Positions 1,637 through 41,544 of a stretch of 41,544 nt of DNA are shown here, piece after piece; the stretch's first letter is position 1, and every line of letters starts with the position of its first letter. Source of the stretch: a virus; the IMG/VR virus record IMGVR_UViG_3300025572_000005; one strand, written 5' to 3'. Below the pieces are notes generated by a model. That model searched no databases. It saw only the letters and a program-made list of their open reading frames with translations, and was not told the DNA's origin. Made by a program: the position numbers and the translations under genes.

Positions 1637-1989
1637 CGCATCGCCACCCCTCGGTAAAGGAGACCGGCGAGGAGGAGATGTCGCCTGGCCCGAGGCGCAA
1701 GCGCAGGAGGCCCGCCGCCGTTGCCGCTTGATGCGTAGGTGGCCGACCAACGCCCGATTGAGAACGACTGGAGCGCTCCCCGAATGTCCGCCTCCTCGCC
1801 GACTTCGAGCCACATCTCGATCTGGGCGCATGTAGCGAGTTTCGTCGCTTCGCTCTGCGTCGCCCTACCCAGAGTGTAGTAGTCGATGTCCTCGGACGCC
1901 CGCTCCAGAAGCCTCTCCGCGTCGTCGGGGAGGTCAGCCAGCGACACGCCGAGGTAGTCAGCGAGGTCTTGCTCAGTTGCATAGGCCAT
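1633..1989 (-). CDS. Head-tail connector protein (gp6 / SPP1 gp15-like)
   Basis: 118 aa. The acidic N-terminus MAYATEQDLADYLGV...LPDDAERLL is characteristic of gp6-like connector proteins. It is the first gene of the neck module. Confidence 0.65.
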   Translation of the reverse strand: MAYATEQDLADYLGVSLADLPDDAERLLERASEDIDYYTLGRATQSEATKLATCAQIEMWLEVGEEADIRGALQSFSIGRWSATYASSGNGGGPPALAPRARRHLLLAGLLYRGVAMR

Positions 1990-1992
1990 GAT

Positions 1993-2874: not shown

Positions 2875-2880
2875 GGGCCG

Positions 2881-3912
2881 TTAGACCTCCCCGCCGTTCT
2901 CCCCGCCGTTCTCCCCGCCATTCTCGCCGCCGCCACCGCTACCGAGGGCGACCTTGTGCTTGAACGCGACGATTCGAATCGCCTTGTTCTCGTACACTCG
3001 TTGCCAGTTGGTGCTGGTCGCGAGTTCCGCATTGGTCGGGAACGCGCCGGTGACGGAAGTTTCCGTCCACTTCACACCGCGCGGGTGCAGGATGAATACA
3101 CGCCGGTTGATGAGGTAATCCTCACCCGCAAGCGCGTTTCGATCCGTCTCGGTGAGCGGAACCGCACCCATGGCGTCGCCGTTGCCAAGCGCGATTGCAC
3201 CAGGCCCGAATAGGTACGTGGTCGTCACGCCCGTATCCGTGTCGAACGGGATGCCGTCGTCGACGATCACGCGCTTGCCCATGTAGGTGGGCACGCGGTC
3301 GCTTTGTCCCGCCTCCTGCACGTACTCGATGAGCTGCTGCTTGGCGAGGTAGGCTTCCGTCGCCGAGTGCATGAGGACGCCCGTTAGCTGACCCTTAGCG
3401 TCGCCGAGCTTCTGCGTCGCGTCGATGAATGTGTTGCCATTGATGTACGCGCCATCCCCGGCCTCACTGGAGATGTCGTGGACGTTGCCCGACATCGTAG
3501 CGGCGCCGAAGATGCCGTCGAGGGTCGAGAGCAGGATCGCCTGGAACCTGCGCGCCCAGTATCCGGCCACGAGATCGCCAATGGCTCGCATCGGGTCGTC
3601 GCCCGCCAGCAGGTGCGCCAAGTCGTTGACGCCCCAGGCACGGCCACGAGCCTGCCGACGCGCCACGTCCTGCCCGGCGGTGATCTTGCCCGGCGTCAGC
3701 GCTCCCTGGTCCGAGAGCACCTCATCGTCGCCCGTCAGGTCCTCCCAATAGGGCATGTGCACCAGCGTGCCGCCGCTGTTCGCGAGTCGGTCGAACTCCG
3801 TCGTGTTCGCAATGATCCCCGACTGATACAGCGCCGACAGTTCCATGCTGCGCTGGATCACATACGGGTTAAATACCTCGGGAATGATCACGTCCGAGAT
3901 TTTGGTAGACAT
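2881..3912 (-). CDS. Major capsid protein (HK97 fold)
   Basis: 343 aa, immediately downstream of the scaffold gene. Composition and length are typical. The C-terminus is GSGGGGENGGENGGENGGEV. Confidence 0.85.
   Translation of the reverse strand: MSTKISDVIIPEVFNPYVIQRSMELSALYQSGIIANTTEFDRLANSGGTLVHMPYWEDLTGDDEVLSDQGALTPGKITAGQDVARRQARGRAWGVNDLAHLLAGDDPMRAIGDLVAGYWARRFQAILLSTLDGIFGAATMSGNVHDISSEAGDGAYINGNTFIDATQKLGDAKGQLTGVLMHSATEAYLAKQQLIEYVQEAGQSDRVPTYMGKRVIVDDGIPFDTDTGVTTTYLFGPGAIALGNGDAMGAVPLTETDRNALAGEDYLINRRVFILHPRGVKWTETSVTGAFPTNAELATSTNWQRVYENKAIRIVAFKHKVALGSGGGGENGGENGGENGGEV
2887..2934. repeat. 12-bp tandem repeat (ctccccgccgtt, three copies plus one degenerate) encoding the (GGEN)n tail of the capsid protein
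   Basis: Read directly: ctccccgccgtt ctccccgccgtt ctccccgccatt ctcgccgccgcc. Confidence 0.85.
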
Positions 3913-3919
3913 AACTCAA

Positions 3920-4609
3920 TCACTTTCCTTTCGCTTCTTTCTGCAGACGGGCCGCGAGCTGCGGATTCTCCCGCAGGATGCGACCCTGTTCGGTCAGATT
4001 GAAATGCTCCTTGCTCCACGGGTTACGGTCGATGCCGCCCCCGCCGCCTGTGAATTCACTGCCGCTCTTGCCTGGTGCTTGCGTCCCTTTGAGTTCGGGC
4101 AGGTCGTTGAGCACGGCCTCAAGCGCGGCCTTGATCGCCGCCGCGTCAGGATTGCCTTGCTCGTCCACATCGACGCCCGACAGGTCAGCGAGTTTGAGCG
4201 CATAGGCGATGCGCTCAGGCTTGATACCAAGCGTCACAGCCTGGACGCGCGCCTCGGCGTTGATAAGGCGCTCGTTGGCCGCGGCCTGCGCCTCTTGTGC
4301 CTTGCGTTCGGCCTCCTCTTTTTCGGCCTTGAGCCGCTCCTCGGCGCTCATTTGCTCCTTCTTGCGCGCTTCTTCCGCCTCGGCTTCCCACTGTTTGCGG
4401 GCGCGGGCGAGACGCTTTTCGATCATGGCGTCGATCTCGGCTTGGGTCATCGTTTTAACGTCGCCCTTGCCCTTGTCGCCGCCACCGGCGTTATCTGGAC
4501 CGCCGTCGCCACCGGTGCCGCCGTCATTGCCCCCGGCGTTGGGGTCGCCGCCCTCTCCAGGCTCGGCGAACAGTTGCAGGTTGATCTTGAATCGCTCGTC
4601 GGTTTGCAT
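3920..4609 (-). CDS. Capsid scaffolding protein (DUF4355-like)
   Basis: N-terminal ...INLQLFAEPGEGG motif, Gly-rich linker and a long charged coiled-coil (EAEAEEARKKEQMSAEERLKAEKEEAERK). Sits directly upstream of the capsid gene. Confidence 0.8.
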   Translation of the reverse strand: MQTDERFKINLQLFAEPGEGGDPNAGGNDGGTGGDGGPDNAGGGDKGKGDVKTMTQAEIDAMIEKRLARARKQWEAEAEEARKKEQMSAEERLKAEKEEAERKAQEAQAAANERLINAEARVQAVTLGIKPERIAYALKLADLSGVDVDEQGNPDAAAIKAALEAVLNDLPELKGTQAPGKSGSEFTGGGGGIDRNPWSKEHFNLTEQGRILRENPQLAARLQKEAKGK

Positions 4610-7743: not shown

Positions 7744-8970
7744 CTACGCCGCTCCTTTCTCTGCCACGATCCACGGTCGCCACACGCGTCGCAAACCGCG
7801 CACCGCATAGCGCAAGGCATCACATCCGTGGTCATTCTGCTTCAACGGCTTGTCTTCGCCTCTCACTTGCGCTTTATCGTCCCACACGTACGTGCCCATT
7901 TCTTCGATCAGGCCCGTGCAACTCGCATGAATCTTAAGCCGTCCCGCACCCAAGAGTGTGCTCACGTCCTGGATGCCGTCGATGACGGCGTTGTCGGCGG
8001 GCCACGTGCGAATTCCGTCGTGGCGCAACTGCGTGATAAACGACGCCGCCGACGGGTCGATCCAAATCCTCTGCGGAACGACGTTGCCGAGCCACCGCCG
8101 CAGTTCTGCGCTTAGCTGAGCGTCCGTCAGCCGCCGCCCCTTCGCCTCGCTGTCCCAGCGCCACTCGCGGCAGACGTAGAGCACTCCGTCCTGACCGACG
8201 CCGAGAAGGAGAAACACCGTCGGGTTCGTCGTGCCATAGTCGATGCCGACGTAATAGTGTTGGATCGGCGGGAGCGCCTTTATGACGTGTTGATCGGGGT
8301 CGAACATGTCGTAAACAGTACCTTCGGCGAGGACCCAGAGGCCGAGGATGTAGCGTTTGTACCACAGGCCCGTGTATTCCCGCTTGAGCGACTCGACGTA
8401 GGCTGGGTCGAGGTTTGGATTGTCATCAAGTCCGAAGCTCCAGTGCCGCAGGTCCAGCTCATGCGCCCGGTCGATGAAATCCCGCTTGAGCCAGTGAAAC
8501 GGACTGTCCGGGTTCGTCGTGCCGAAGAAGCGCGCTCCTGGAAGTGACAGGCGCGAGAGCATCATGGCGAAGAAGCTCTCCGGCCACAGCGTGATCTCAT
8601 CGCCGTAGCATCCCACGAGAGTCAGACCCCGGATTTTACCCTCACTGCGCTCGTCGTTCGCACCCGCGAGATAGACCCGTCTCCCGAGGATCATCGCTTC
8701 GCCTTTGCCGGACAACAGGCGAAACTCGTCCTCGTCCAACATCTCGGCAATGGGGTCGAGGATGTTTCGCTTGAGCGTACGCTCTGTCTTTCCGACCATG
8801 AGCAATTCGCCTGGAGGCCCATGCGCGACAAAATCGAGCCACCGGATGATACTCGCGACCGTCTTGCCCGAACGCACCGAACCATGCCAGATGTTGAGTC
8901 GCGCGTCTGCCTCAAGGATCGAGCGCCGTTGCTTACCCGTCGGTAGCGCCAACGTCGGCATCGGCCTCAT
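7744..8970 (-). CDS. terL: Terminase large subunit (PBSX / Terminase_3-like)
   Basis: Walker A GSVRSGKT, Walker B-like VGCYGDEIT, C-terminal nuclease region with IDYGTTNP and NDHGCDALRY. Confidence 0.92.
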   Translation of the reverse strand: MRPMPTLALPTGKQRRSILEADARLNIWHGSVRSGKTVASIIRWLDFVAHGPPGELLMVGKTERTLKRNILDPIAEMLDEDEFRLLSGKGEAMILGRRVYLAGANDERSEGKIRGLTLVGCYGDEITLWPESFFAMMLSRLSLPGARFFGTTNPDSPFHWLKRDFIDRAHELDLRHWSFGLDDNPNLDPAYVESLKREYTGLWYKRYILGLWVLAEGTVYDMFDPDQHVIKALPPIQHYYVGIDYGTTNPTVFLLLGVGQDGVLYVCREWRWDSEAKGRRLTDAQLSAELRRWLGNVVPQRIWIDPSAASFITQLRHDGIRTWPADNAVIDGIQDVSTLLGAGRLKIHASCTGLIEEMGTYVWDDKAQVRGEDKPLKQNDHGCDALRYAVRGLRRVWRPWIVAEKGAA

Positions 8971-9364
8971 CCCCCCGCAGGCGTTGCATTAGCTCGCTGA
9001 TTGCACCGCGCCGCTTGCCGCCGTCGTCGTCCTCCTGGCGGCGCTTATCCAAGAGCACCGCCAGTGCCATCGCTAGTTGCTGCAATTCGCCAGGTTTTGC
9101 CAGAATCTCAAGCATCGCGTCGGCCTTGTCAAGCGCCTTGTCAATCAGGCGAATCCGCTCGGCGCGTGCGTAAGTGATCCGGGCCTCGGTCGCTTTTTTC
9201 GGCTCGGCAACATTGCTCTTGATCCCTTCGACCTTCGCAATCCGGTTGATGGTGGACACATGACGCCCGAACTTGCGAGCGATTGCTCCCTGCGACATCT
9301 CGCCACTCTTGAGGGCTTCGATGATCTGTTGGCGCTCTTTCTCGCTCACAGGCTTCGGACGCAT
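8933..9364 (-). CDS. terS: Terminase small subunit (HTH-containing)
   Basis: HTH SQGAIARKFGRHVSTINRIAK. Overlaps terL by 38 nt. ATG at 9364 is preceded by GGAAGGTGG. The ORF track extends to GTG 9373. Confidence 0.7.
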   Translation of the reverse strand: MRPKPVSEKERQQIIEALKSGEMSQGAIARKFGRHVSTINRIAKVEGIKSNVAEPKKATEARITYARAERIRLIDKALDKADAMLEILAKPGELQQLAMALAVLLDKRRQEDDDGGKRRGAISELMQRLRGDEADADVGATDG

Positions 9365-9469: not shown

Positions 9470-10264
9470 CTACTTCGCCAACGGTAGCGCAGGCTGTAGC
9501 TCTGCCATGCGCTTTCGGATGACCTCGCAATACTCCGGCTCCTTCTCGATCCCGATACACGAAAAACCCTCCTGGATCGCTGCCAGGAGGGTTGTGCCGG
9601 AACCGGAGAAGGGGTCGAGGACTGTGCCGCCGGGAGGAGTGATGAGACGGATCATCCAGGCGGCCAAATCACGTGGATATGCTGCCGGGTGGCCGCGCGA
9701 GTCTGTTTGGGAAGGCGATACGGCAACCCAATCACGACAACGAGCGATTCCGCTTCTCAAGTCGGATGCCCCAGCCAGCCATTTCTTAAAACCTTCACCA
9801 GCCAGGCTTACGCCTATCCTGTCTGAAAACCTCCCATTCGCCTTGGGATCGCAGTACGGTTGCTGATCCTTCGCAAACCACAAAATGCGTTCCCAAGAAC
9901 GTCTGGGTCGCTTCGGGTGTCCAACAGGAGGCGCGTCAGGCTTCATCCAAATCAACTCATCACATTCGATCCATCCCGCCTCACGCAGTGCCAAACGGGT
10001 CCGATGCACGTAGTCCGACATCTCGCCGTTGCGAATGTGCTCCCGAATGTTGATGAGCACGCTCCCATGCGGCTTCAAAATGCGGCGCACCTGCTCCATC
10101 CACGCTACAGTCCAAGCGGGGTATTCCGCTTCTGGAACGCCGCCATACAACTTCGCCCGTTGCATCGCGTAAGGCGGCGACGTAACAACCGAGTCGACAC
10201 TTCCCTCGGGCAAGCCCTTCATCACTTCGATGCAGTCGCCTTCGTAGAGCGTCCACTCGGCCAT
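9470..10264 (-). CDS. DNA N4-cytosine / N6-adenine methyltransferase (beta class)
   Basis: Motif IV VVTSPPYA lies near the N-terminus and motif I VLDPFSGSGTT near the C-terminus. No adjacent endonuclease gene. Confidence 0.88.
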   Translation of the reverse strand: MAEWTLYEGDCIEVMKGLPEGSVDSVVTSPPYAMQRAKLYGGVPEAEYPAWTVAWMEQVRRILKPHGSVLINIREHIRNGEMSDYVHRTRLALREAGWIECDELIWMKPDAPPVGHPKRPRRSWERILWFAKDQQPYCDPKANGRFSDRIGVSLAGEGFKKWLAGASDLRSGIARCRDWVAVSPSQTDSRGHPAAYPRDLAAWMIRLITPPGGTVLDPFSGSGTTLLAAIQEGFSCIGIEKEPEYCEVIRKRMAELQPALPLAK

Positions 10265-10742: not shown

Positions 10743-10955
10743 TCACCCGGCACGTCGTACTACACGCAACTCATCGTAAGGGAAACTCTCGCGATAACCA
10801 CAATCCAGCTCCACCGTCGCAAACCGCGGGCCTGTCCACACGACGCGTCCGCGCAGGCGTTGCTGCGTCATCCGCACGTCACGCCGATCCGTGCGCTTGC
10901 CCCACGCTGTCAGATGCACGACTACCTCCACGCGGTCGCCTATCTGTACGCTCAC
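10743..10955 (-). CDS. Hypothetical 70-aa protein (small beta-rich, SH3/KOW-like impression)
   Basis: ATGA-type 4-nt overlap with the upstream gene. Sequence GDRVEVVVH...GRVVWTGPRFATVELD. Confidence 0.55.
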   Translation of the reverse strand: MSVQIGDRVEVVVHLTAWGKRTDRRDVRMTQQRLRGRVVWTGPRFATVELDCGYRESFPYDELRVVRRAG

Positions 10956-11281
10956 GCCCCACCACCTCCGTTTTTCGCCTCAGAACGTTTGAGAGCCGAC
11001 AACAGCGCAGCGCGGCAGATGGCTTCTGGTGCGTTCTTGCTCGACACCACCACTTCTGCGCCACCGACAGCGACGACCCAATCGCCCTTGACGTAGGTGA
11101 TCGTGAGGGCTTCGTCAGGCGTCGCGAGGTGCTCCACAACCTGCCATGCCGCGTCGATGTCTCGACTGTATGGCACAGGACCGGCGACTGGCGACCACGT
11201 TAGTCCGAGAACATCCCTCGCCACCGCCTCGTCAAGCTCCCGCCCGCTCAACCGCATCACGTCGTCCCGCGTCATGCTCAT
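10952..11281 (-). CDS. Phage ABA-sandwich-domain-like protein
   Basis: N-terminal LSGRELDEAVARDVLGLTW...DIDAAWQVVEHL resembles the phage ABA sandwich domain signature (sgrELDalVAekVmGW). Confidence 0.55.
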   Translation of the reverse strand: MSMTRDDVMRLSGRELDEAVARDVLGLTWSPVAGPVPYSRDIDAAWQVVEHLATPDEALTITYVKGDWVVAVGGAEVVVSSKNAPEAICRAALLSALKRSEAKNGGGGA

Positions 11282-11412
11282 TGCTTGACCTCGCCTCCTG
11301 TCAGGCGTTGCGCTTGACGCGCCGCTTCATCCGCTCTCCCCGCCGCCTGACACAGCGCCACGACCAGCACGCCCACGATGCAGCCGACCCATGCGCCGAG
11401 TAGGAACGTCAT
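11278..11412 (-). CDS. Small 44-aa membrane protein (not in the ORF track)
   Basis: My translation is MTFLLGAWVGCIVGVLVVALCQAAGRADEAARQAQRLTGGEVKQ. ATGA overlaps with both neighbouring genes. Confidence 0.5.
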   Translation of the reverse strand: MTFLLGAWVGCIVGVLVVALCQAAGRADEAARQAQRLTGGEVKQ

Positions 11413-11681
11413 GCGCTCTTCTCCTCCGCCTCAGCGATTGCTCCCGCGGCTCGGATTATCTTGACGCACAACTCAAAGAGGCGGAAGTCGAGCTCGCGCG
11501 CAATTCCCTGTTCCAGTTCCCGGCACAGTTTGTTCAACTGTTCCTCGTCAAGCCCCGATGTGTCCCCCTCAATGGCGACTCGCACCGGAGCCGAAACGAC
11601 CAATGCCAGGTTGTCCCCAAACCGCAACCTCGTCTCGACTTTGCCGTCGTTCTTGTACGTCATGTCCTTGATCTTCATCAC
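11409..11681 (-). CDS. Hypothetical 90-aa protein
   Basis: ORF with 4-nt overlaps on both sides. Confidence 0.6.
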   Translation of the reverse strand: MMKIKDMTYKNDGKVETRLRFGDNLALVVSAPVRVAIEGDTSGLDEEQLNKLCRELEQGIARELDFRLFELCVKIIRAAGAIAEAEEKSA

Positions 11682-12043
11682 ACAGCCGCCTCCTTCGCCT
11701 CCGCTATCTCCACCTCGACGCGCTCCGGCGTCCCCGTCATCGCATACACATGCAGCGCCACGACCTGGCTGTCGTCCCGGTACGCGACTCCGTTCAGCCC
11801 GTCCATGATTGACTTCGCGGCGTTGTCGATGTCGGCCCGCCGTCGCCCTTTAGAGTACAGCCACATCCGCAGCGCAACAGGGCCGTCGATCATCGTCACG
11901 GCTGCAGCCCGCGCTTCCCATGCGACGCGCTCCTCATACTCCCGCGTCTCGCGAGGCGTGTAGGTGACGACGCGGTTGCCGCGGCGCAGAGCCACGCGCG
12001 GGCGACGTTTGCCGTGAGGTCGGCCAGGGATCACGAATCGCAC
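11678..12043 (-). CDS. rusA: Holliday junction resolvase RusA
   Basis: Motif RADIDNAAKSIMDGLNGVAYRDDSQV. The start is set at GTG 12043, preceded by GGAGG 7 nt upstream. The ORF track extends to 12100. Confidence 0.85.
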   Translation of the reverse strand: MRFVIPGRPHGKRRPRVALRRGNRVVTYTPRETREYEERVAWEARAAAVTMIDGPVALRMWLYSKGRRRADIDNAAKSIMDGLNGVAYRDDSQVVALHVYAMTGTPERVEVEIAEAKEAAV

Positions 12044-17926: not shown

Positions 17927-18784
17927 TCATGCTCTGAAAACCGCGTCCATGTACGCCCTTATGAAACGCGCCGCGAGGACTGGAACGATTGCATTGCCCG
18001 CACCCCGCAGGAGAGCCACTCGTCCGGGTAGCCCATCAACCAGAGGCTCAAGGCCGGGTTTAATGCGCCTTGCGGTGCCGTCTGCGCAGGGGACCCAGAC
18101 GTAATCCCCCCACGGCCTGCAGAATGCGCCGTCCTCGTCAGCGATGTCCAGGGGCTCTCTTTCCGCACACGATTCTTCGCGTCGTCGGCCAACGGCGTAG
18201 GCCAACCGGCTAGCCGTGCCTGATCCTCCAGATTCCGCGCTTGCCCCTTTATCCATCGGGTGCCCTTTGCGTCGCCACGTGCCCGGGGAATATGCCACCC
18301 ACCATAGCCGTTGTCGGATGTGCGGCGCGCCGACGCTCGCAGCCGGCAAATCGGCGGCCCCGACGGCATATCCCATTGCTTCCAGGTCAGCTCGTACTCC
18401 GGCGAGCCATCGACGGCCATCAGAGCTTGCAACCTGCTCGCCAAAGATAACTGGAGGTCTACACTGATCAATGAGCCAACGCCATGCCCACCATAAGGCC
18501 CTCGGGTCGTCATCCCCCTTTCGAGCGCCTGCCGAGGAGTAAGGATGGCAAGGGCAGGATCCGGTCCACACGGGCCACTCATCCGGCCATCCTGCGAGCC
18601 TGAGCGCATACGGCCATCCGCCGATCCCGGCGAAGAAGTGAGCGTGTCGGTATCTAGCAAGCTCGTCTGGACGTACATCCTCGATGCTCCTCTCATCCAC
18701 TACGCCGGCGGGGATCTGATCTGCTGCCATGAGTTCGCGCAACCACGCTGCCGCTTTGGGATCGAACTCGTTGTAGTAGATCAC
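17927..18784 (-). CDS. DNA (cytosine-5) methyltransferase
   Basis: Motif I FFAGIGG, motif IV SCPCHPYSSAG, motif VI FGEQV, motif X GAGNAIVP. The start is set at GTG 18784, preceded by GGGAGGTGGGG. Confidence 0.88.
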   Translation of the reverse strand: MIYYNEFDPKAAAWLRELMAADQIPAGVVDERSIEDVRPDELARYRHAHFFAGIGGWPYALRLAGWPDEWPVWTGSCPCHPYSSAGARKGDDDPRALWWAWRWLIDQCRPPVIFGEQVASSDGRRWLAGVRADLEAMGYAVGAADLPAASVGAPHIRQRLWWVAYSPGTWRRKGHPMDKGASAESGGSGTASRLAYAVGRRREESCAEREPLDIADEDGAFCRPWGDYVWVPCADGTARRIKPGLEPLVDGLPGRVALLRGAGNAIVPVLAARFIRAYMDAVFRA

Positions 18785-18872
18785 GTCCCCACCTCCCGCA
18801 TATCTGTTGTGCGCATGGCGCATCCTACACTCGCGCCCTGTGCGCCTGTGGCGGCGGGGTTGATAACGCAGG

Positions 18873-25003: not shown

Positions 25004-25537
25004 GTGAAGCGTCTGGCGATTATGTGGATAGTTGGGGCGTTTGTGTTGATGACATTCCCTTCTTCAATGCTCGCCCAAGGCCAAGAACCCATCTTTCAAG
25101 GATTGTCATGGGGGGACTCTATCGAGGAAGTTCGAAAGGTATACGCTGTTTCCCCCAAGCTCGACACCATTTATCAAGAAGAGTGGATTCACGACGAAAC
25201 CGCAGGGCCAGAGTTTCAAGCATCGTTAGGTAATATAAAGGTTACGTCGATCTCGTTCGTTTTCTTTGACGGGCGTTTGATGCAAATTCAAGTTCGGGTA
25301 CCTGACATTATTTCTGGAGTACGAGCACAATCAGCGCTCAATGAAAGGTACGGGAAGGCGAAGTTTGAATTACTTGCCCAAGGTGCGGTAGCCTTTTGGG
25401 CTTGGAGTCATGGGGACGATACAACAATACGGATGCCAGAGAATATGCGATCCTTTACCTTCTCCAGTAATTCCATCACCAGCGAATACCAGAAGTGGCG
25501 AGAAAGCCAAACTGCCCAAGACGCCCAGTCGTGGTGA
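25004..25537 (+). CDS. Secreted hypothetical protein (lysogeny-module moron)
   Basis: GTG start with GGAGGTG 7 nt upstream. Signal-peptide-like MKRLAIMWIVGAFVLMTFPSSMLA/QGQ. GC is visibly lower than the rest of the genome. Confidence 0.7.
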   Translation: MKRLAIMWIVGAFVLMTFPSSMLAQGQEPIFQGLSWGDSIEEVRKVYAVSPKLDTIYQEEWIHDETAGPEFQASLGNIKVTSISFVFFDGRLMQIQVRVPDIISGVRAQSALNERYGKAKFELLAQGAVAFWAWSHGDDTTIRMPENMRSFTFSSNSITSEYQKWRESQTAQDAQSW

Positions 25538-25549
25538 TGAGGTGATCCC

Positions 25550-26716
25550 ATGCCCCGCGGCAACATCGAAAAGCGCGGCGAAGGCCGCTACCGTATCCGC
25601 ATCTACCTCGGCAAACTCCCCGATGGCACGCCGATCTACCACCGGGAGACGGTCCGCGGCACGCTCGATGACGCCGAGCGCCGCCTGACGGCGATCCTGC
25701 GGGAACTCGACACCAATACTTACGTCGAGCGAAACGACTTAACGCTCGGCGAGTTCCTGGGGCAATGGCTGAAGGAGTGGGTGGAGGTCAGCGGCAAGAG
25801 CCAAAAGACTGTCGCGAGCTACAAGGAGATGTTGGGCTACATCATCCCGTCCATCGGTCACATCCCGCTCCAAAAACTCACGCCCCGACACATCCAATCT
25901 CACTACGCCAAACAGCTAAAGAGCGGGCGCAAGCGAGGCGGAGGACTCAGCCCTACGAGCGTCCACGGTCAACACCGGGTGTTGCACGCGGCCTTGGAAG
26001 TCGCCGTGCGTTGGGGGTATATCGCACGCAACCCCGCCGATGCCGTCGAGCCCCCGCCCAAGCGCAAGCGGGGCGGCGACGTGTGGACCGATGAGGAGGC
26101 AGCGCGGTTCCTCGCCCATGTGCGTGGCCATAGACTATATGCCCTGTTCGCCCTGGCGATGTCTACCGGGCTCCGGCGCGGGGAACTGGGTGGCCTGCGG
26201 TGGAAGGATGTAGACTTTGAGCGTCGACGCATCCACGTGCATCAGGTGTTGGTCTATATCGACGGCGAGCACGTGTTCAAGGACAAACCAAAGACCGAGG
26301 CGAGCGAGGACTACGTCTCGATCAGCCCTGCCGTCGTGGCGATCCTCCAGGAGCATCGCAAACGCCAACTGCGCGAGCGTTGGGTCTACGGCGAGCGATA
26401 TGAGGACAATGGCCTCGTATTCTGCCAGCCCAACGGACGCCGCCTCAACCTGGACAACCTCAGCAAGCGCGACTTTCCAAAGCTCTGCGAGGCGGCGGGC
26501 GTCTCGCGCATACGGTTTCACGACATACGCCACACCTACGCCACCCGCCTGTTCGAGCAAGGTGAGGCGTTGACCACAGTCCAGCGACGGCTCCGGCACT
26601 CCAAGGGCTCGACCACCATCGACATCTACGGCCACCCGTCGTCGAGGGCCGAGGAAGAAGCAGCGACCGCGATGGATGATTTACTGCCCCCTCTTGAGGA
26701 AGCCGAGGGCGAGTGA
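25550..26716 (+). CDS. int: Tyrosine integrase
   Basis: SAM-like N-terminal domain. Catalytic region ...GLRRGEL...RFHDIRHTYATRL...RLRHSKGSTTIDIYGH (R, H-x-x-R, H, Y). Confidence 0.93.
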   Translation: MPRGNIEKRGEGRYRIRIYLGKLPDGTPIYHRETVRGTLDDAERRLTAILRELDTNTYVERNDLTLGEFLGQWLKEWVEVSGKSQKTVASYKEMLGYIIPSIGHIPLQKLTPRHIQSHYAKQLKSGRKRGGGLSPTSVHGQHRVLHAALEVAVRWGYIARNPADAVEPPPKRKRGGDVWTDEEAARFLAHVRGHRLYALFALAMSTGLRRGELGGLRWKDVDFERRRIHVHQVLVYIDGEHVFKDKPKTEASEDYVSISPAVVAILQEHRKRQLRERWVYGERYEDNGLVFCQPNGRRLNLDNLSKRDFPKLCEAAGVSRIRFHDIRHTYATRLFEQGEALTTVQRRLRHSKGSTTIDIYGHPSSRAEEEAATAMDDLLPPLEEAEGE

Positions 26717-26792: not shown

Positions 26793-26800
26793 AAATCGAA

Positions 26801-26826
26801 AGGCCCGTCGAGTGACGGGCCTTTTA
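26801..26826 (+). terminator. Intrinsic terminator downstream of int
   Basis: aggcccgtc-gagt-gacgggcct followed by ttt, and preceded by an A-run, so it may work in both directions. Confidence 0.6.
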
Positions 26827-26828
26827 GC

Positions 26829-26874
26829 TGGTGCGCGCGAGAGGATTTGAACCCCTGACCTTCTGATCCGTAGT
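26829..26874 (-). other. attP core: 3' half of a tRNA-Arg(ACG) gene (anticodon loop to CCA), not a complete tRNA
   Basis: The minus strand reads ACTACGGATCAGAAGGTCAGGGGTTCAAATCCTCTCGCGCGCACCA. This covers anticodon loop CTACGGA, variable AGGTC, T-arm AGGGG/TTCAAAT/CCTCT, acceptor 3' strand and CCA. No matching 5' acceptor, D-arm or 5' anticodon stem lies upstream. Confidence 0.65.
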
Positions 26875-26993
26875 TGGAAGCCATGCGTTCCCACCCCGCC
26901 CCGCCGATGTCCGATGTGCCCACTCTAACAGCAGTTTTACTAGCTCAGCCGATCGGGTGTTCGGGTATTCGTCCCCGCGTTTCCCCGCGCTTC

Positions 26994-27064: not shown

Positions 27065-27095
27065 ATAAAGCCCCGGCCACTAAGACCGGGGCTTT
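27065..27095 (-). terminator. Intrinsic terminator ending the late/lysis/cargo operon
   Basis: GCCCCGG-N9-CCGGGGC flanked by AAA and TTT. On the minus strand it is followed by TTTATAT. The stop codon of ORF 27080-27442 lies in the loop. Confidence 0.6.
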
Positions 27096-27442
27096 CCTAT
27101 TTCCCACCTCGCCGCCAGTCCATCACCGGACGTTTCGAGGCGTATCATGTCCTGCGGCGACAAAGCGTCCTCAAGTCGGAGCACAAGCTCCTCCTGACTC
27201 ACGGTTTGGTCGATTCGGCGCTGAATCTCGGCTCGGGTTGCGTAAACCCATTGCCCTGTTTCCGGGACGCGATGCCAGTCTTCCGCCTCTGGTTCTACGC
27301 CGAGGCCAACGAGGAGTCGCTCGACGGCTCCCCAGGCGGCGTCGTAGACTCCCCAAAAGGGCCATACGTGTTCGCCGACCACACGATGATGTCCACGAGC
27401 CAGCCAATGAACGTCCGCCGCAGGAACAGGTCGGCGGCCCAT
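27080..27442 (-). CDS. ORF without a convincing start; probably the -1 frame extension of the 27295-27591 product, otherwise a separate hypothetical protein
   Basis: No SD before ATG 27442 or GTG 27382. It overlaps the upstream ORF by 148 nt and is exactly its -1 frame. High third-position GC downstream of 27355. Confidence 0.35.
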   Translation of the reverse strand: MGRRPVPAADVHWLARGHHRVVGEHVWPFWGVYDAAWGAVERLLVGLGVEPEAEDWHRVPETGQWVYATRAEIQRRIDQTVSQEELVLRLEDALSPQDMIRLETSGDGLAARWEIGKPRS

Positions 27443-27591
27443 TTGGGCAGAGACAGGTGTTGTTTCGCCTCGGTCATAAACAGGTCGACGACCTCTTTGC
27501 GCTTCGCCTCGCCGTCGCCGGGACGCTCGACGATGTTGACAAGCGCCGTGATGATGGCGATGACTTCCATGACGACTTTGAAGATGTTCAT
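27295..27591 (-). CDS. Holin-like small membrane protein (LL-H-holin-like layout)
   Basis: N-terminal TM helix MNIFKVVMEVIAIITALVNIV followed by a charged region. Strong SD GAGAGGAG. The last ~20 aa may be out-of-frame read-through. Confidence 0.5.
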   Translation of the reverse strand: MNIFKVVMEVIAIITALVNIVERPGDGEAKRKEVVDLFMTEAKQHLSLPKWAADLFLRRTFIGWLVDIIVWSANTYGPFGESTTPPGEPSSDSSLASA

Positions 27592-27620
27592 TTTCGTTCT
27601 CCTCTCTTAGCTTCCGAGCG

Positions 27621-27716
27621 CTAATTCAGCACGATTAGCACCACAACGCAAACGGCCGCGAGGATCATGCTCCCCACGGCCACGATACCGGATATGAGGT
27701 TGTAGCTGTCGAACAT
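27621..27716 (-). CDS. 31-aa hydrophobic peptide (not in the ORF track)
   Basis: My translation is MFDSYNLISGIVAVGSMILAAVCVVVLIVLN. TGATG overlap with the upstream ORF. Confidence 0.4.
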   Translation of the reverse strand: MFDSYNLISGIVAVGSMILAAVCVVVLIVLN

Positions 27717-27835
27717 CAGTCATCACACCCTATGCAGCGCACCTTCCGTCCGGTCGTCCAGCCGCATCGGCGACACAGCAAAGCGCCAAGGTGGACCGAA
27801 AGCGGATAGCGGCACGTCGGGCATTTTGGGATCAT
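27716..27835 (-). CDS. 39-aa Zn-ribbon protein
   Basis: MIPKCPTCRYPLSVHLGALLCRRCGW.... ATGA overlap with the upstream gene. The ORF-track N-terminus is discarded. Confidence 0.45.
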   Translation of the reverse strand: MIPKCPTCRYPLSVHLGALLCRRCGWTTGRKVRCIGCDD

Positions 27836-28149
27836 TCTGCATCCATCCCCGACTCCATCGGCAATCCCCACCAGCTGCGGCGCACCATCTGCGCGATGAT
27901 GCCGTAGTTTGCGAGGTCGAGCCATGCGTCGTCGATGCTCTCGTGATTGGGCGTTCGATTGCCCGTGATGAGATGCTTGAGCCGTTCGAGTTTGTCGCTC
28001 GCGCGGACGAGTACGCCTAGCTCCCCGAAGGCGGCGATGTTGCCGGGGCCGTAGTCGGCCTGTTTCGAGACCATCACCGCCCTCATCTCTGCGAGGATGG
28101 TATCGAGAGCGTCTTCAAATGTGCGCGGCTTCGATTCGGCCGTTCTCAC
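27832..28149 (-). CDS. MazG-like all-alpha NTP-pyrophosphohydrolase-fold protein (DUF1599-like)
   Basis: KQADYGPGNIAAFGELGVLVRASDKLERLKHL ... ESIDDAWLDLANYG pattern. GTG 28149 is preceded by GGAGGTGG 7 nt upstream. ATG 28170 is an alternative start. Confidence 0.55.
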   Translation of the reverse strand: MRTAESKPRTFEDALDTILAEMRAVMVSKQADYGPGNIAAFGELGVLVRASDKLERLKHLITGNRTPNHESIDDAWLDLANYGIIAQMVRRSWWGLPMESGMDAE

Positions 28150-28465
28150 CGTCGATCCACCTCCACTCATAGACGGGTATCCCACATCGTTTCGCTTCCT
28201 CAACCTCTCCGCGTGTCCCGACAGAAGACTCCCACCCAGGGACGAGCACGACAAGATCGCAGCGTCGAAGAATCTCAAGATCGCCCTTGAGCCACATTTC
28301 ATCGGGGCAGGTGCCGCCGAAGAATGCGGTATTCTTGTGCGGACAGATGACGGCGTACCCGAGCTTCCAAAGCATCACCGCTACCCGTTCTGCCGCTTCG
28401 ATGTTGCACTTGACACCCCACTCGGTCGGCGCTCGATACGGGCCTGCAACGTATGCGACCTTCAC
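28115..28465 (-). CDS. DUF4406 / nucleoside 2-deoxyribosyltransferase-like protein
   Basis: VKVAYVAGPYR...ICPH...CDLVVLVPGWESSVGTRGEVEEAKRCGIPVY. GTG 28465 has a GTGA overlap and GGAGGTG upstream. Confidence 0.68.
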   Translation of the reverse strand: MKVAYVAGPYRAPTEWGVKCNIEAAERVAVMLWKLGYAVICPHKNTAFFGGTCPDEMWLKGDLEILRRCDLVVLVPGWESSVGTRGEVEEAKRCGIPVYEWRWIDGENGRIEAAHI

Positions 28466-29232
28466 AACGTCACCTCCACCCGCTTGGGTTCTGCATAGAG
28501 CCGTGTCACCGGACTCCCCTGTGCGCCGGGCTTGTAGCCTTGCACTTGAGCGTAACCACCCCAATGAAGGTTCGCGCTCGAATTAAGGAACGTCTGTTCG
28601 ACGAGGCGGACGTTGTTGTTGTAGAGGTCCGGCACGTAGATGCTCTCTTTGAACACGACCTTGAAATGCGTGTGCGACGAGATGTAGATGTCGGCCAGCA
28701 CGACGTTTGCCATACGCGCCATGCGGAGCACTTTCCCGCCCTGGAGTGCGCCGCCGCCTCGCCCGTGGGTGTGGTAGATCGTGTAGACGGCGCGTTTGCC
28801 GTTCTTGCGCTTACGCCCGAATCCGAGTTTGAGCAGGACGCCGTTGGGGAAGTGACGGTCGCGGATGCCCAGGTGCTCGGCCAGCTCGCCCACAACGTCG
28901 ATGCTGGTGTCCCGCTTGATCCGGTCCTCGTGGTTGCCGTTGGTGATCGAGAGGATGCGGTCGCGTAGCGGGTAGAGTTCCTGCTTGCACCAGCGCAACT
29001 GCTCGGCGGGCGTGAGCACGTCCTCGTACACGTCGGAGATGGAGCGCTTCGTCGCGATGTTCATGAGATCGCCGTTGAGGATGACATATCGGTTGGGCTG
29101 CTCTAGCACCCACTCCCGACGCTCGTAGAACAGGTCGCGGTTGAACAGTGGATCGCCAACGTGGAGGTCGCTGAACGTGTCCAGTTCAACGGTGTCGTGA
29201 TCGGGCGAGAGCGAGATTTCGTGGAGGATCAT
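28462..29232 (-). CDS. Calcineurin-like metallophosphoesterase
   Basis: Motifs FSDLHVGD, NGDL, ITNGNHE, YHTHG and SSHTH. ATG 29232 lies 2 nt after the endolysin stop. Confidence 0.85.
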   Translation of the reverse strand: MILHEISLSPDHDTVELDTFSDLHVGDPLFNRDLFYERREWVLEQPNRYVILNGDLMNIATKRSISDVYEDVLTPAEQLRWCKQELYPLRDRILSITNGNHEDRIKRDTSIDVVGELAEHLGIRDRHFPNGVLLKLGFGRKRKNGKRAVYTIYHTHGRGGGALQGGKVLRMARMANVVLADIYISSHTHFKVVFKESIYVPDLYNNNVRLVEQTFLNSSANLHWGGYAQVQGYKPGAQGSPVTRLYAEPKRVEVTL

Positions 29233-29234
29233 GC

Positions 29235-29699
29235 TCACACGCCCCGCCTCCTCGGCGTGCCCTCCACGCCGGCGTAGAACAGGTGCGCGCTGTCCCACGG
29301 CACATGGATGAGCTGCGCGCCCACCGTCCATTCAGGAGGCTTGATCGTGCGCGTGTGGTAGTGTGTCGGGAACGGTCCCTTGGTCCCGAACAACTCGTGA
29401 AGGTCGCGGTCGCGCAGGTGGTTCACGACGAGATGGGCCGCCGCGACGCACAGCGGCCATACGTCCGGGCAGGATTTTTCGGCCTGAAGGATCACTTCAC
29501 GGTTCGGATCGTCTTCGTTCCAGCACGAGAACTGCCACGGCTTGCGGCAAACGCTGATCCAGTCAATTCCCCACCAGCCCGGACGCAAGACGCGTTCTCG
29601 GATCACGGCCCCGACCGCAACCATGTCGAGGAACCCGCACCCGCGGGCCTCCCCGCATATCGTGCGAGCAACGATGTCGACGTTTGGATCAACGGCCAT
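29235..29699 (-). CDS. Endolysin, SleB/CwlJ-like cell wall hydrolase (Hydrolase_2)
   Basis: ARTICGEARG...AVGAVIRERV...PWQFSCWN. The start is set at ATG 29699 (MAVDPN...), overlapping the holin end by 11 nt. Confidence 0.85.
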   Translation of the reverse strand: MAVDPNVDIVARTICGEARGCGFLDMVAVGAVIRERVLRPGWWGIDWISVCRKPWQFSCWNEDDPNREVILQAEKSCPDVWPLCVAAAHLVVNHLRDRDLHELFGTKGPFPTHYHTRTIKPPEWTVGAQLIHVPWDSAHLFYAGVEGTPRRRGV

Positions 29700-30099
29700 G
29701 CGGCGTTCCCTCCCGGTCGCGCAGTACCGCAAGTGCATCTCGCAAGCGCTCTGGAATCGGCACACCGACTTCGCCTAGGTTCTCGACGATGCTCAGTGCC
29801 TCGTTGCCTATGTACCACCACACGGCCATTGTCCGCAGGATCGGGTCGCCCAGTCCTCCTGTCTGGTCGATGATGTTGCAGAGGGCAATGATAGCGAACA
29901 TGCCTACCTTTCGTGCAATTCCCCGGCGCCCCACTTCCGAGGAAAGGCGTCGTCCCACCCATGCGGCTGCCCACCCGCTGGCGTAGTCGATACACGCCAA
30001 CACCACCAGCGCCGTCAGCACGGCGTCCCACCCTCCCCACAGGTACGTGGCCGCCATGCCGATCGCGGCGAGAAGCGCCTTGACCGTCGATTCGTCCAT
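29689..30099 (-). CDS. Holin (toxin-secretion/phage-lysis holin family, Phage_holin_4_1-like)
   Basis: Three hydrophobic segments. ...CIDYASGW...LSSEVGRRGIARKVGMF...YIGNEALSIVENLGEVGVPIP. Confidence 0.8.
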   Translation of the reverse strand: MDESTVKALLAAIGMAATYLWGGWDAVLTALVVLACIDYASGWAAAWVGRRLSSEVGRRGIARKVGMFAIIALCNIIDQTGGLGDPILRTMAVWWYIGNEALSIVENLGEVGVPIPERLRDALAVLRDREGTPHGR

Positions 30100-30210
30100 C
30101 GTCTCACGTCCCGTCCGTTTGGCGTTGAAAGCGAAGACGCCGCAGGATCAAATCCCACGGCGTCGGTGTTTGTCCGTGATGTTTCGTTCTTCTACTGGTG
30201 CTCTAGAACT

Positions 30211-40791: not shown

Positions 40792-41438
40792 TCACCCCGC
40801 CTTCTTGGTCACAAGTCCACGCAAGTACATCGTCGCCTCTTGGGGATCGGTAATCTTGCGCGTCTCGCCGCCTCCTTTGTCGCTCTTGTGCCGCCGATAC
40901 GCAATCGCATTGGCATAAGCGCTCTGCGGCGAAAGGCCGCGTACCAACGCCAAAAAGCGCCGCCAGGAGAATGTGTCATCCCGCAGCGCTTCGCGTAGGT
41001 CAATACGGTATTCACGCAGGAAATCAGCTTCAATTAGCGGCCAGTCTTCGAGGATCGACCTTGTTTCTTCGGCGTCTCCCCCGTCGCGGGGGCCTCTCCG
41101 TTTCCCTTCTCTTGGTCGCCGTCCTCAGCAGAGGGCAGGTACATGCCGATGATATGGGTAAAAATCTGCACGATCTGCACAGCCTCGATGCCTCGGTCGA
41201 GCCACTGCTCCACGCGATCAGTGCCGACGAACAGCTTGAGGTCGTCGATGTAGGTTTCCAGCTGCTCGCCAAGACCGCGACCATCATCCTCTTGATAGCG
41301 CATCGCCTTGAGCATGATGCGCGCCGGGAGCGTGGTCGGAAGATCGATGACTTCACCAAAGACTTTGATCTGCTTAGGTTCTACTTCTTCTGGTTTAGTC
41401 TCTTCCCAAAACGCGTCAAAGTCGACAAACTTCGCCAC
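40792..41438 (-). CDS. Tail assembly chaperone GT fusion produced by -1 frameshift at 41100-41106
   Basis: My translation of the -1 frame downstream of the slippery site reads ...ILEDWPLIEADFLREYRIDLREALRDDTFSWRRFLALVRGLSPQSAYANAIAYRR..., typical of gpT. It stops at 40792, 4 nt before the TMP start. Confidence 0.7.
41034..41438 (-). CDS. Tail assembly chaperone (gpG-like)
   Basis: 134 aa with an acidic N-terminus, between the major tail gene (across the junction) and the TMP. GTG start. Confidence 0.8.
   Translation of the reverse strand: MAKFVDFDAFWEETKPEEVEPKQIKVFGEVIDLPTTLPARIMLKAMRYQEDDGRGLGEQLETYIDDLKLFVGTDRVEQWLDRGIEAVQIVQIFTHIIGMYLPSAEDGDQEKGNGEAPATGETPKKQGRSSKTGR
41100..41106 (-). 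promoter_or_regulatory. -1 programmed frameshift slippery heptamer G_GGA_AAC
   Basis: In phase with the gpG frame (codons GGA112 and AAC113). Lambda G/GT uses GGGAAAG. Confidence 0.65.
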
Positions 41439-41544
41439 AGTTCCACCTCCGTTAAGTGTGAAAAGGGCGAGGCTTTCGCCCCGCCCCGTCTTACTCGCCG
41501 CCGCTTACTGGCGTGATGTCGCCGCTCACCGTGATGGTGACGCT
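41418..41544. repeat. Second copy of the 127-nt terminal direct repeat (identical to 1-127)
   Basis: Identical string, read directly. Confidence 0.95.

Follow-up and report, generated by a model that had tools for sequence, protein, structure and literature searches.

A metallophosphoesterase gene locked behind the endolysin gene, and its facultative partners, in a temperate phage genome: a possible late nucleotide-catabolic cassette

Two consecutive phage enzymes of nucleotide breakdown have been described in the PurZ0 'Z-genome' actinophages, in which DutZ or DUF5664 makes dAMP from dATP and DmtZ, a nucleoside 2-deoxyribosyltransferase (NDT)-like protein, then splits dAMP, the respective genes being adjacent or fused (PMC12884076). 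According to the authors, DmtZ has no Pfam model, and a Tyr/Asp/Glu catalytic logic is stated for DmtZ, Rcl and NDT (PMC12884076). Two described proteins of the metallophosphoesterase (MPE) type are also of relevance. Gp48 of mycobacteriophage A10ZJ24 is the product of an early gene, has phosphodiesterase activity, damages host DNA and acts in counter-defence (PMC12287305), and the Calcineurin-CE effector of PUA-Cal-HAD converts dNDP to dNMP and cleaves NAD+ (bioRxiv 10.64898/2026.01.15.699771). The locus analyzed here is located on the minus strand of a 41,544-nt stretch of viral DNA (IMG/VR record IMGVR_UViG_3300025572_000005; hereafter, the window), where an endolysin gene is followed by genes for an MPE, an NDT-like DUF4406 protein and a DUF1599 protein. 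The cassette belongs with the phage accessory nucleotide-hydrolase modules, a known kind. It is tentatively read as a late-expressed nucleotide-catabolic chain that has (deoxy)nucleoside monophosphate, (d)NMP, as a shared intermediate; this reading leads the candidates considered and is put forward with reserve.

The cassette lies within one late transcription unit (27295–30099, minus strand), its lateness being deduced from gene position. In the order of transcription, the unit consists of the following genes:

29689–30099, minus strand: holin, 136 aa (Pfam Phage_holin_4_1, 1.9e-39; phrog_199)
29235–29699, minus strand: SleB-type endolysin, 154 aa (Pfam Hydrolase_2, 2.1e-6; phrog_938); its first 11 nt lie within the end of the holin gene
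28462–29232, minus strand: calcineurin-fold MPE, 256 aa (phrog_7339, 2.9e-33; Pfam Metallophos, 19.2 bits)
28115–28465, minus strand: DUF4406/DUF1937/DUF7768 protein, 116 aa (Pfam, 2.4e-9; phrog_355, 1.2e-24)
27832–28149, minus strand: DUF1599 protein, 105 aa, 'nucleotide modification associated domain 1' (phrog_1485, 2.8e-16)
27716–27835, minus strand: Zn-ribbon mini-protein, 39 aa, with three CxxC pairs; ATGA overlap
27621–27716, minus strand: hydrophobic single-pass peptide, 31 aa; 1-nt TGATG overlap
27295–27591, minus strand: membrane protein p98, 98 aa, with its own strong ribosome-binding site (RBS; AGAGAGGAGAA) and a predicted N-terminal transmembrane (TM) helix

The gene junctions were found to be as given in the original prediction, which had been made from this DNA without database searches. 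The endolysin stop codon (TGA, 29237–29235) is followed after a 2-nt gap by the MPE start codon (ATG, 29232), located behind GAGGAGG; the MPE stop codon and the DUF4406 start codon (GTG) share GTGA (28465–28462); and the DUF1599 start codon (GTG, 28149) lies 35 nt within the DUF4406 gene, behind GGAGGTGG. The overlaps leading to the 39-aa Zn-ribbon and 31-aa peptide genes were likewise verified, and both of these genes are conserved in relatives. The five junctions from the endolysin to the 31-aa peptide measure +2, −4, −35, −4 and −1 nt, with Shine–Dalgarno (SD)-like sequences before each gene, and appear compatible with translational coupling. An alternative in-frame start (GTG, 29238), which is the one picked by the metagenome gene caller, would yield a GTGA overlap and a product of 258 aa. 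Codon-position GC speaks for p98, the 31-aa peptide and all three enzymes being encoded (GC at the third codon position, GC3, 0.66–0.84, with GC2 lower), and gives no clear answer for the Zn-ribbon ORF, which is very short. No sigma-70-like promoter was found by a scan within the unit, a negative that carries no weight for this host.

Eight informative relatives with an MPE identity to the window protein of at least 63% constitute the close clade, and are referred to by locus number: L170 (100%), L279 (91%), L277 (86%), L007 (79%), L278 (66%), L008 (65%), L009 (65%) and L006 (63%). In all eight of them, the MPE gene is found directly after an endolysin gene, with its start −4 to about +5 nt from the endolysin stop; an exception in spacing is L278, where the called endolysin and MPE genes overlap by 64 nt. 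The endolysins that precede the MPE represent three unrelated catalytic classes, namely SleB-type Hydrolase_2, GH108 with or without PG_binding_3 (L009 and L278), and Amidase_2 (L006). The MPE of L007 is closer to its window counterpart (79% identity) than are the holin (66%) and the endolysin (51%) of the same locus. Outside of the close clade, the MPE gene of L281 (41% MPE identity) lies directly behind the holin gene, in Bacillus phage Slash it is followed by a SleB-like endolysin gene, with a MazG gene three genes upstream, and in Marinitoga phage MPV1 the order is tail fiber, MPE, holin and endolysin. Eggerthella phage EL753P1 has the order amidase, large terminase subunit (TerL), MPE and portal. 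In a set of 67 non-redundant viral loci, terminase subunits (Terminase_6N, 9; Terminase_3, 8; other terminase families in smaller counts) are the most frequent products of the two genes that follow the MPE gene, and a subset of the loci has holins or amidases within two genes. The MPE gene belongs to the late region, and within its close clade it is normally coupled to lysis genes. Since the endolysin–MPE order is kept in all of the close relatives, the view that coupling to lysis genes is unusual holds solely for DUF1599, which is usually found among genes of replication (gp32, PD-(D/E)XK nucleases, clamp loader, polymerases). No account of an MPE in a lysis cassette was found in the literature, and the endolysin-locked position of the MPE across three endolysin classes is apparently undescribed.

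Such a position would also be expected if the MPE were a lysis accessory, released via holin lesions to cut phosphodiesters of the envelope, for example, those of teichoic-acid-type polymers. This explanation draws on the location of the MPE gene behind endolysin or holin genes in the eight close relatives and L281 irrespective of which of the three endolysin classes precedes it, on the conserved membrane proteins encoded at the end of the unit, and on the proximity of MPE and lysis genes in MPV1 and Slash. PhoD, an MPE-fold enzyme, degrades wall teichoic acid in Bacillus subtilis. However, most of the distant family members are found upstream of terminase genes, away from lysis genes, the recurrent partners of the MPE are nucleotide enzymes rather than wall enzymes, and the MPE has no cell-wall-binding domain, its structural neighbors being nucleases and nucleotide hydrolases. 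An envelope-directed role thus appears distinctly improbable.

The base rates of the three families were determined by tblastn against 50,697 phage records, in which the MPE was found in 29 records (0.06%), DUF4406 in 276 (0.5%) and DUF1599 in 67. A DUF4406-like gene is present in 6 out of 67 non-redundant viral MPE loci and in 3 out of 26 loci from bacterial genomes, and it always abuts the MPE gene, on either side of it, often with overlapping stop and start codons. When the loci are viewed from the DUF4406 side, an MPE-family gene is found within about 1 kb in 7 out of 80; from the DUF1599 side, the other two genes are present in only 1 out of 80. Adjacency of MPE and DUF4406 at a frequency of about 10%, as compared with base rates of 0.06–0.5%, is far beyond chance, and the existence of both gene orders, together with MPE identities of 35–45%, argues for repeated selection of this adjacency. 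The families are found together far above base rate and in direct contact, which supports the original prediction on this point. The abutment of MPE and DUF4406 genes in many unrelated phages is apparently undescribed as well.

The full trio was detected in three lineages besides the window (L009, L278 and L094), with MPE identities of 37–66%. L278 has the gene order of the window, including the 31-aa and ~100-aa genes, behind a GH108 endolysin; in L009, the order is MPE, DUF4406, a 73-aa gene, a second DUF4406 and DUF1599; and in L094, it is MPE, DUF1599 and DUF4406. DUF1599 accompanies the MPE in L008, L009, L279, L278 and L094, and is found 3.5 kb from the MPE, not adjacent to it, in Geobacillus phages. 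Among the eight close relatives, DUF1599 is present in five and DUF4406 in three (6/9 and 4/9, respectively, when the window is counted). What is conserved in the cassette is the MPE, with DUF1599 and DUF4406 as its facultative partners; an obligate three-gene system is ruled out by close relatives that lack one or both of the partners. The two DUF4406 copies of L009, the closest viral relative (8756–9133 and 9518–9880, with the 73-aa ORF between them), are each about 72% identical to the window protein, and a TnpB/IS605 OrfB gene (10826–11947, minus strand) is located immediately after the cassette of this relative. In L006, a gene for an AAA_18 P-loop protein of the nucleotide/polynucleotide kinase type (3957–4568) is coupled to the MPE end in place of DUF4406 and DUF1599, and this pair of kinase and MPE recalls the polynucleotide kinase-phosphatase end-healing enzymes.

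The differing partner content, seen even among close relatives, is what would be expected if the cassette were a stack of independent accessory genes that share no common pathway and have accumulated at the insertion-tolerant end of the late operon beside attP. The same explanation would account for the ~90% of MPE loci that have neither partner, for the normal placement of DUF1599 among replication genes and of DUF4406 beside methylases, helicases and polymerases, and for the TnpB/IS605 gene next to the L009 cassette. On the other hand, it is at odds with the abutment of MPE and DUF4406 in about 10% of loci from either side (vs. 0.06% and 0.5%), which occurs in both orders and at 35–45% MPE identity, and with the recurrence of the trio in three other lineages. 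An assembly of unrelated genes is thus considered unlikely, albeit the foremost of the alternatives.

Analysis of the individual proteins suggests that all three enzymes look active, as their catalytic residues, putative ones in the case of DUF1599, are intact. The MPE contains the motifs SDLHVGD, NGDL, NGNHE, HTHG and SSHTH, as had been noted in the original prediction. In an alignment of 35 homologues (30–79% identity), residues D22, H24, G54, D55, G99, N100, H101, H156, H187 and H189 are invariant, and by virtue of them the protein conforms to the five-motif pattern of PF00149 (DxH, GD, GNH(D/E), H, GHxH). The score of the Pfam Metallophos (PF00149) model itself is under the cut-off of 21.5 bits, and many homologues do carry PF00149. 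Clustered at 50% identity, the family is large, with 4,856 representatives matching at E ≤ 1e-10, of which 1,418 remain at E ≤ 1e-30, and it is uniform in length (~255–270 aa). A scan of a genome collection with a narrower MPE alignment retrieved only relatives of 34–42% identity, nearly all of them from Clostridia metagenome-assembled genomes (MAGs). NCBIfam gave nothing useful for the cassette proteins; for the 39-aa protein, weak Zn-ribbon matches were obtained in both Pfam and NCBIfam.

The AlphaFold2 (AF2) model of the MPE (pLDDT 92.3) has the two-sheet beta-sandwich MPE fold and gave 105 matches in the PDB at E ≤ 1e-3, those listed being all of the MPE fold. The model best matches the phosphodiesterase/exonuclease domain of the archaeal PolD subunit DP1 (E-value, 5e-9; query-normalized TM-score, TMq, 0.62; ~15% identity), followed by SapH (an Ap4A hydrolase), LpxH, Vps29, PP5, Mre11 and Rv0805 (TMq ~0.35–0.5). 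The sequence profile of the MPE matches DP1 (6e-4) and, marginally, SbcD, and single-sequence searches of the PDB with the MPE or DUF1599 gave no match. Neither a Rad50, SbcC nor DP2 partner was found in any of the MPE neighborhoods examined, and the MPE is a single domain of 256 aa with no capping or OB domain. Based on the model, the best guess for its substrate class is nuclease-like. The L094 homologue of the MPE (1642–3198, 519 aa) is split by a classical intein (HAD|CLHP...THN|CYIMSHDH) just before motif V, for which weak LAGLIDADG and intein Pfam matches were obtained, and a 583-aa member of the family may likewise hold an intein.

These results bear on the possibility that the MPE is a late DNA/RNA nuclease of the Mre11/SbcD/DP1 type, which would act at packaging or lysis on, for example, unpackaged, branched or host DNA, with the NDT-like and MazG-like pair forming a separate pool module. 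Besides the profile and structure matches, led by PolD DP1 with SbcD and Mre11 behind it, this would agree with the annotation of phrog_7339 as 'DNA repair exonuclease', with the late surroundings of the family members, which lie beside terminase/portal or lysis genes, and with the intein before motif V of the L094 homologue. Inteins prefer nucleic-acid enzymes. A further parallel is the mycobacteriophage MPE Gp48, a phosphodiesterase by which the genomic DNA of the host is damaged (PMC12287305). Gp48, however, is early and has no detectable similarity to the window MPE, and no mycobacteriophage is among the MPE matches in the phage records. The TM-score of ~0.6 and identity of ~15% to DP1, the single-domain architecture and the lack of a Rad50/SbcC-like partner argue in the same direction, and the specific adjacency to DUF4406 would be left unexplained. 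A separate late nuclease is accordingly rated as rather unlikely, ranking after the accessory stack.

The DUF4406 protein scores above threshold with three Pfam families (DUF4406, PF14359, 37.9 vs. 22; DUF1937, 36.1 vs. 23; DUF7768, 30.8 vs. 26), and phrog_355, which it also matches, is annotated as 'nucleoside 2-deoxyribosyltransferase'; its assignment in the original prediction is thereby upheld. The family profile matches the DUF1937 structure 1T1J (3e-5) and the CMP N-glycosidase 4JEN (7e-5) in the PDB, with weaker matches to MilB, BlsM and a true NDT. No variation is seen at P42, D70, S81, G83 and E87; at least 90% of the sequences have Y5, which follows strand 1, and most of the close homologues have D62. 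The stretch S81-x-G83-x3-E87 aligns with the phosphate-binding and nucleophile motif (SPG, Glu) of 4JEN, and it is inferred that S81/G83 may bind a 5'-phosphate, in a hydrolase-type pocket rather than the transferase-type 5'-OH pocket. The Tyr, Asp and Glu of the catalytic triad are represented by Y5, D62 and E87. Together, the S-x-G-x3-E motif and the Tyr/Asp/Glu logic point to a nucleoside 5'-monophosphate as the substrate, and the protein is predicted from these residues to be a (d)NMP N-glycosidase. It also matches a part of phrog_12019, a 241-position profile annotated as MazG-like pyrophosphatase, which hints at fusion proteins.

In viral contigs, the most common immediate neighbor of DUF4406 is an N6_N4 methylase (18 out of 146 neighbor ORFs), followed by dGTP_diPhyd_N (5), Metallophos (3), UDG (3), DUF6378 (2), DUF3310 (2) and dUTPase (1). 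Of these, dGTP_diPhyd_N, DUF6378, DUF3310 and dUTPase are families of the pyrophosphohydrolase type. DUF4406 thus repeatedly adjoins (d)NMP-making enzymes and DNA methylases. Methylase genes also precede the MPE gene in Geobacillus phages and L282. The phage of the window itself encodes an N6/N4 DNA methylase (9473–10264, minus strand) and a C5 DNA methylase (17930–18823, minus strand).

The DUF1599 model (PF07659) scores 24.8 bits against a cut-off of 25 with the third enzyme, and the precomputed match is marked 'weak'; most of the homologues with identities of 50–90% carry PF07659. Residues D52, K53, R56, D74 and D78 are invariant, D32 is conserved in at least 90% of the sequences, E70 is conserved, and the seven could plausibly form a metal and phosphate site. 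The AF2 model (pLDDT 91) is a bundle of three to four helices, for which the top Foldseek match is AF_0060 (probability 0.99; E-value, 0.53), with YpjD, DCTPP1, Thermotoga MazG, HisE and iMazG following at E-values of 1.5–5. No sequence match of the DUF1599 profile to the PDB was obtained. The textbook form of the MazG-type metal-binding motif is EExxE...ExxD. As for the 'MazG-like' label of the original prediction, the all-helical bundle was borne out, whereas the assignment to MazG stems from weak fold similarity; judged by the model, the label is reasonable, not established. No function for DUF4406 or DUF1599 was found in the literature, and we know of no DUF1599 protein with a shown activity.

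A chain of reactions can be drawn from these assignments. The DUF1599 protein, if MazG-like, would convert (d)NTP to (d)NMP and PPi, and the MPE would release 5'-(d)NMP from nucleic acid, oligonucleotides or (d)NDP, possibly through cleavage of their phosphodiester or phosphoanhydride linkages. The DUF4406 protein would then irreversibly split (d)NMP into the free base and (deoxy)ribose-5-phosphate. As they would be produced along with the endolysin, the enzymes would act at the end of the infection. The likeliest purpose would be the removal of particular nucleotide species, such as non-canonical or methylated (d)NMPs from methylated DNA, and general support of replication would be a less likely one. 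The clearing of non-canonical or methylated nucleotides is ranked first because the phage has two DNA methylases and because methylases are the top neighbors of DUF4406. In order of decreasing probability, it is followed by unrelated accessory genes, a late nuclease with a pool module, anti-defence, a wall-directed accessory and prophage defence.

A number of observations weigh against this catabolic chain. Approximately nine in ten MPE loci are without its partners, and in close relatives the MPE is accompanied by DUF1599 alone (L008 and L279), by the gene for the kinase-like AAA_18 protein (L006) or by that of an unrelated protein of the membrane (L007), from which it follows that the MPE works without the other two. 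The enrichment counts ignore phylogeny, the loci are truncated, and the HMMs were built from close homologues. The nearest structures of the MPE (TM ~0.6) are nucleases, not nucleotide hydrolases. The resemblance of DUF1599 to MazG is weak (Foldseek E-values of 0.5–5), and its acidic residues do not follow the spacing of the MazG motif. The late timing is read from the position of the genes, and destruction of nucleotides at lysis is of no obvious benefit. Of the three-enzyme nucleotide pathway proposed originally, the chemistry, the co-occurrence and a precedent in DutZ/DmtZ stand, but the trio is no fixed unit.

A broader version of the catabolic reading would regard the MPE as carrying out a so far unrecognized late function widespread in phages of Bacillota, tied by translation in one clade to any endolysin that the phage encodes, which, with NDT-like and MazG-like partners, destroys the breakdown products of nucleic acids at lysis. 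It might thereby erase danger signals in the form of modified dNMPs (m6-dAMP), or deny nucleotides to competitors. This generalization is speculative and should be regarded as improbable, somewhat less so than the signal-cleaving function discussed next; if true, the cassette would represent a new class of lysis-stage counter-measure and not a metabolic helper.

The original prediction had proposed that a specific nucleotide pool or a nucleotide second messenger could be degraded or remodeled, as a role in anti-defence. In such a case, the MPE would cleave cyclic nucleotide, oligonucleotide or NAD-derived signals, and its partners would destroy the products or an m6-dAMP-like danger signal. 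Enzymes with the MPE fold can hydrolyze cyclic nucleotides, Ap4A and NAD+, and Rv0805 and SapH are among the fold matches of the window protein. The phage has N6/N4 and C5 DNA methylases, the commonest neighbor of DUF4406 is an N6_N4 methylase, and a position adjacent to attP is typical of accessory cargo. In addition, m6-dAMP has been proven to set off a defence system (bioRxiv 10.64898/2026.01.15.699771). Nevertheless, counter-defence genes are usually early, whereas the cassette is coupled to the endolysin gene; no defence-related neighbors were found in any locus; and the adjacency of methylases may merely reflect a common position upstream of terminase. A scan with PADLOC-DB v2 gave no meaningful match for any of the seven cassette proteins. 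The anti-CBASS protein Acb1 has a 2H fold and the anti-Pycsar protein Apyc1 a metallo-beta-lactamase (MBL) fold; the MPE has neither, and its fold is closest to that of nuclease-type MPEs. As nothing specific to the breakdown of second messengers or to anti-defence was detected, this part of the original prediction found no support, and such a role is held to be improbable.

The remaining products of the unit are small. All six Cys residues of the Zn-ribbon protein are kept in L279 despite substitutions. The 31-aa TM peptide (GC3, 0.81) is conserved in L278, and a similar hydrophobic peptide is encoded at the same position in L008. As they are conserved with amino-acid substitutions in relatives, the 39-aa and 31-aa ORFs are real genes. 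The public ENA gene call has a different 39-aa frame in this region (27723–27842, minus strand; MQNDPKMPDV...), which is probably wrong, because the Zn-ribbon frame, with its six Cys residues in L279, is the conserved one. Protein p98 (GC3, 0.84) is conserved in L278 (3741–4043) and L279 (1832–2101), always at the end of the cassette, and has no match in Pfam, PHROG, PADLOC or the phage database; at its position in L007, an unrelated 137-aa TM protein with no similarity to p98 is encoded. Judging by this conservation, the Zn-ribbon protein, the TM peptide and p98 are the products of real genes that travel with the cassette, and p98 and the TM peptide may take part in lysis control rather than in nucleotide chemistry. 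A 120-aa ORF that overlaps p98 in another frame (27080–27442) is probably not a gene (GC1, 0.77; GC3, 0.61; no RBS).

Bases 1–127 of the window are identical to bases 41418–41544, which leaves 41,417 unique bp. The window matches a metagenome contig of 41,470 bp in the ENA. Such ends indicate a circular assembly of a complete phage genome, consistent with the presence of attP, and the window is a complete temperate siphovirus-type genome assembled as a circle, with a G–C content of about 61%. The cassette proteins have their nearest relatives in metagenomes and in MAGs of Bacillota/Clostridia. On the minus strand, tail genes are followed by the lysis genes, the enzyme cassette, a hairpin and an attP-like fragment of a tRNA 3' end. 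The plus strand past attP encodes an integrase, a possibly secreted protein of 177 aa and a repressor pair of the ImmA/HTH kind. The early genes, all on the minus strand, code for HTH regulators, HNH, single-stranded DNA-binding protein (SSB), C5 DNA methylase, DnaB, RusA and N6/N4 DNA methylase, and they are followed by genes for small and large terminase subunits, portal and minor capsid protein. The features around the unit are as follows:

25550–26716, plus strand: tyrosine integrase (Pfam Phage_integrase), convergent on attP
26799–26885, minus strand: tRNA-3'-end-like stretch and an 11-bp hairpin with a U-tail (read from the sequence; hairpin by scan and folding)
27067–27095, minus strand: hairpin closing the unit, beside attP (perfect 10-bp stem; −25 kcal/mol; z = −4.0)
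30136–30164, minus strand: terminator-like hairpin upstream of the holin gene (13-bp GC-rich stem; U-rich tail; −22.8 kcal/mol; z = −3.8)

The tRNA-like part (~26829–26885) includes a T-arm (GGTTCAAATCC) and extends to GCACCA; ARAGORN and Rfam revealed no complete tRNA and no credible family around attP. The segment 26799–26885 probably constitutes the core of attP and would reproduce the 3' terminus of a tRNA gene of the host together with the terminator of that gene. The hairpin at 27067–27095, with which the block had been said to end beside attP, is real, although its T-run is short and it is not listed by the terminator consensus scan; the p98 gene, which lies between the 31-aa ORF and this hairpin, had been missed. 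The hairpin at 30136–30164 is found 37 nt before the holin start, in the 111-nt gap after the last gene of the tail region. It is possibly a terminator or attenuator that splits the tail genes from the lysis unit, and, given this hairpin, the unit of lysis and cassette genes may be separately transcribed or dependent on antitermination. A 177-aa ORF (25004–25537, plus strand), located between the ImmA-like gene and the integrase gene, has a signal-peptide-like N-terminus (MKRLAIMWIVGAFVLMTFPSSMLAQG) and no family match; its product may be a secreted protein or lipoprotein expressed in lysogeny.

Sites adjacent to attP are common for prophage defence cargo, and in systems of the PUA-Cal-HAD type the effectors that deplete dNTPs are enzymes of the calcineurin type or MazG-like ones. 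The cassette might, on these grounds, be a prophage-encoded module for defence or superinfection exclusion that is expressed in the lysogen and depletes nucleotides. However, it has no sensor domain, no independent promoter was detected, its genes are coupled to the endolysin gene, the PADLOC scan was negative, and homologues occur beside terminase genes in phages that are apparently strictly lytic. Of all the explanations considered, this one is by far the hardest to credit.

The fixed order of endolysin and MPE and the abutment of MPE and DUF4406 provide a testable entry into three large families of unknown function, and culturable relatives for genetics are available in Bacillus phage Slash, the Geobacillus vB_GthS phages and Marinitoga MPV1. 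The proteins of PHROG 7339 in these phages belong to the family of the window MPE (26–34% identity), with annotations made by homology, and are encoded beside lysis genes in Slash and MPV1 and near terminase in the Geobacillus phages.

As compared with PolD DP1, Mre11 and SbcD, which provide its best structure (TMq 0.62) and profile (6e-4) matches, the window MPE has all five motifs, but is only ~15% identical, has no OB or capping domains and has no Rad50, SbcC or polymerase partner. With Gp48, it has in common that both are phage MPEs with the five motifs; Gp48, in contrast, is early, is not linked to lysis or NDT-like genes, and shows no detectable similarity to it. Calcineurin-CE and its HAD partner resemble the cassette in that a calcineurin-fold enzyme acts on nucleotides within a multi-enzyme cascade, in which a MazG-like enzyme replaces it in some systems. 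That protein, however, serves as an effector of bacterial defence in a system that has a PUA sensor and assembles into filaments, whereas the window cassette has no HAD or PUA gene and the neighborhoods of the MPE are made up of phage late genes, not defence loci. The DUF1599 protein is similar to the all-alpha NTP pyrophosphohydrolases MazG, DCTPP1 and MazZ and to AF_0060 in its helical bundle, conserved acidic residues and top fold matches, and differs from MazG, DCTPP1 and MazZ in its other motif spacing, with Foldseek E-values of 0.5–5 and no sequence match. DUF4406 shares profile matches and the Ser-x-Gly-x3-Glu motif with DNPH1/Rcl, MilB, BcmB and 1T1J; in contrast to DNPH1/Rcl, MilB and BcmB, to which its identity is low, it is a far smaller protein of 116 aa that is encoded by a phage, in coupling with an MPE.

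The closest likeness in terms of pathway is with DutZ/DmtZ, where a dNTP pyrophosphohydrolase yields dNMP, and an enzyme of the NDT superfamily with Tyr/Asp(Asn)/Glu then cleaves the glycosidic bond. Moreover, DUF5664 (Pfam dGTP_diPhyd_N) is also a recurrent neighbor of DUF4406 and of this MPE. The window differs in having DUF4406 instead of the DmtZ family, DUF1599 instead of Dut/DUF5664 and an additional MPE; no match to PurZ (adenylosuccinate-synthetase-like) or Dut/dUTPase was found among the window proteins scanned; and its genes are located in the lysis operon, not among replication genes. If the proposed pathway is true, the combination of a dNMP-generating hydrolase with an NDT-like N-glycosidase, so far shown only in the Z-genome phages, would be a general modular strategy of phages, and the cassette would add the calcineurin-fold phosphoesterase to its upstream enzymes as a third type.

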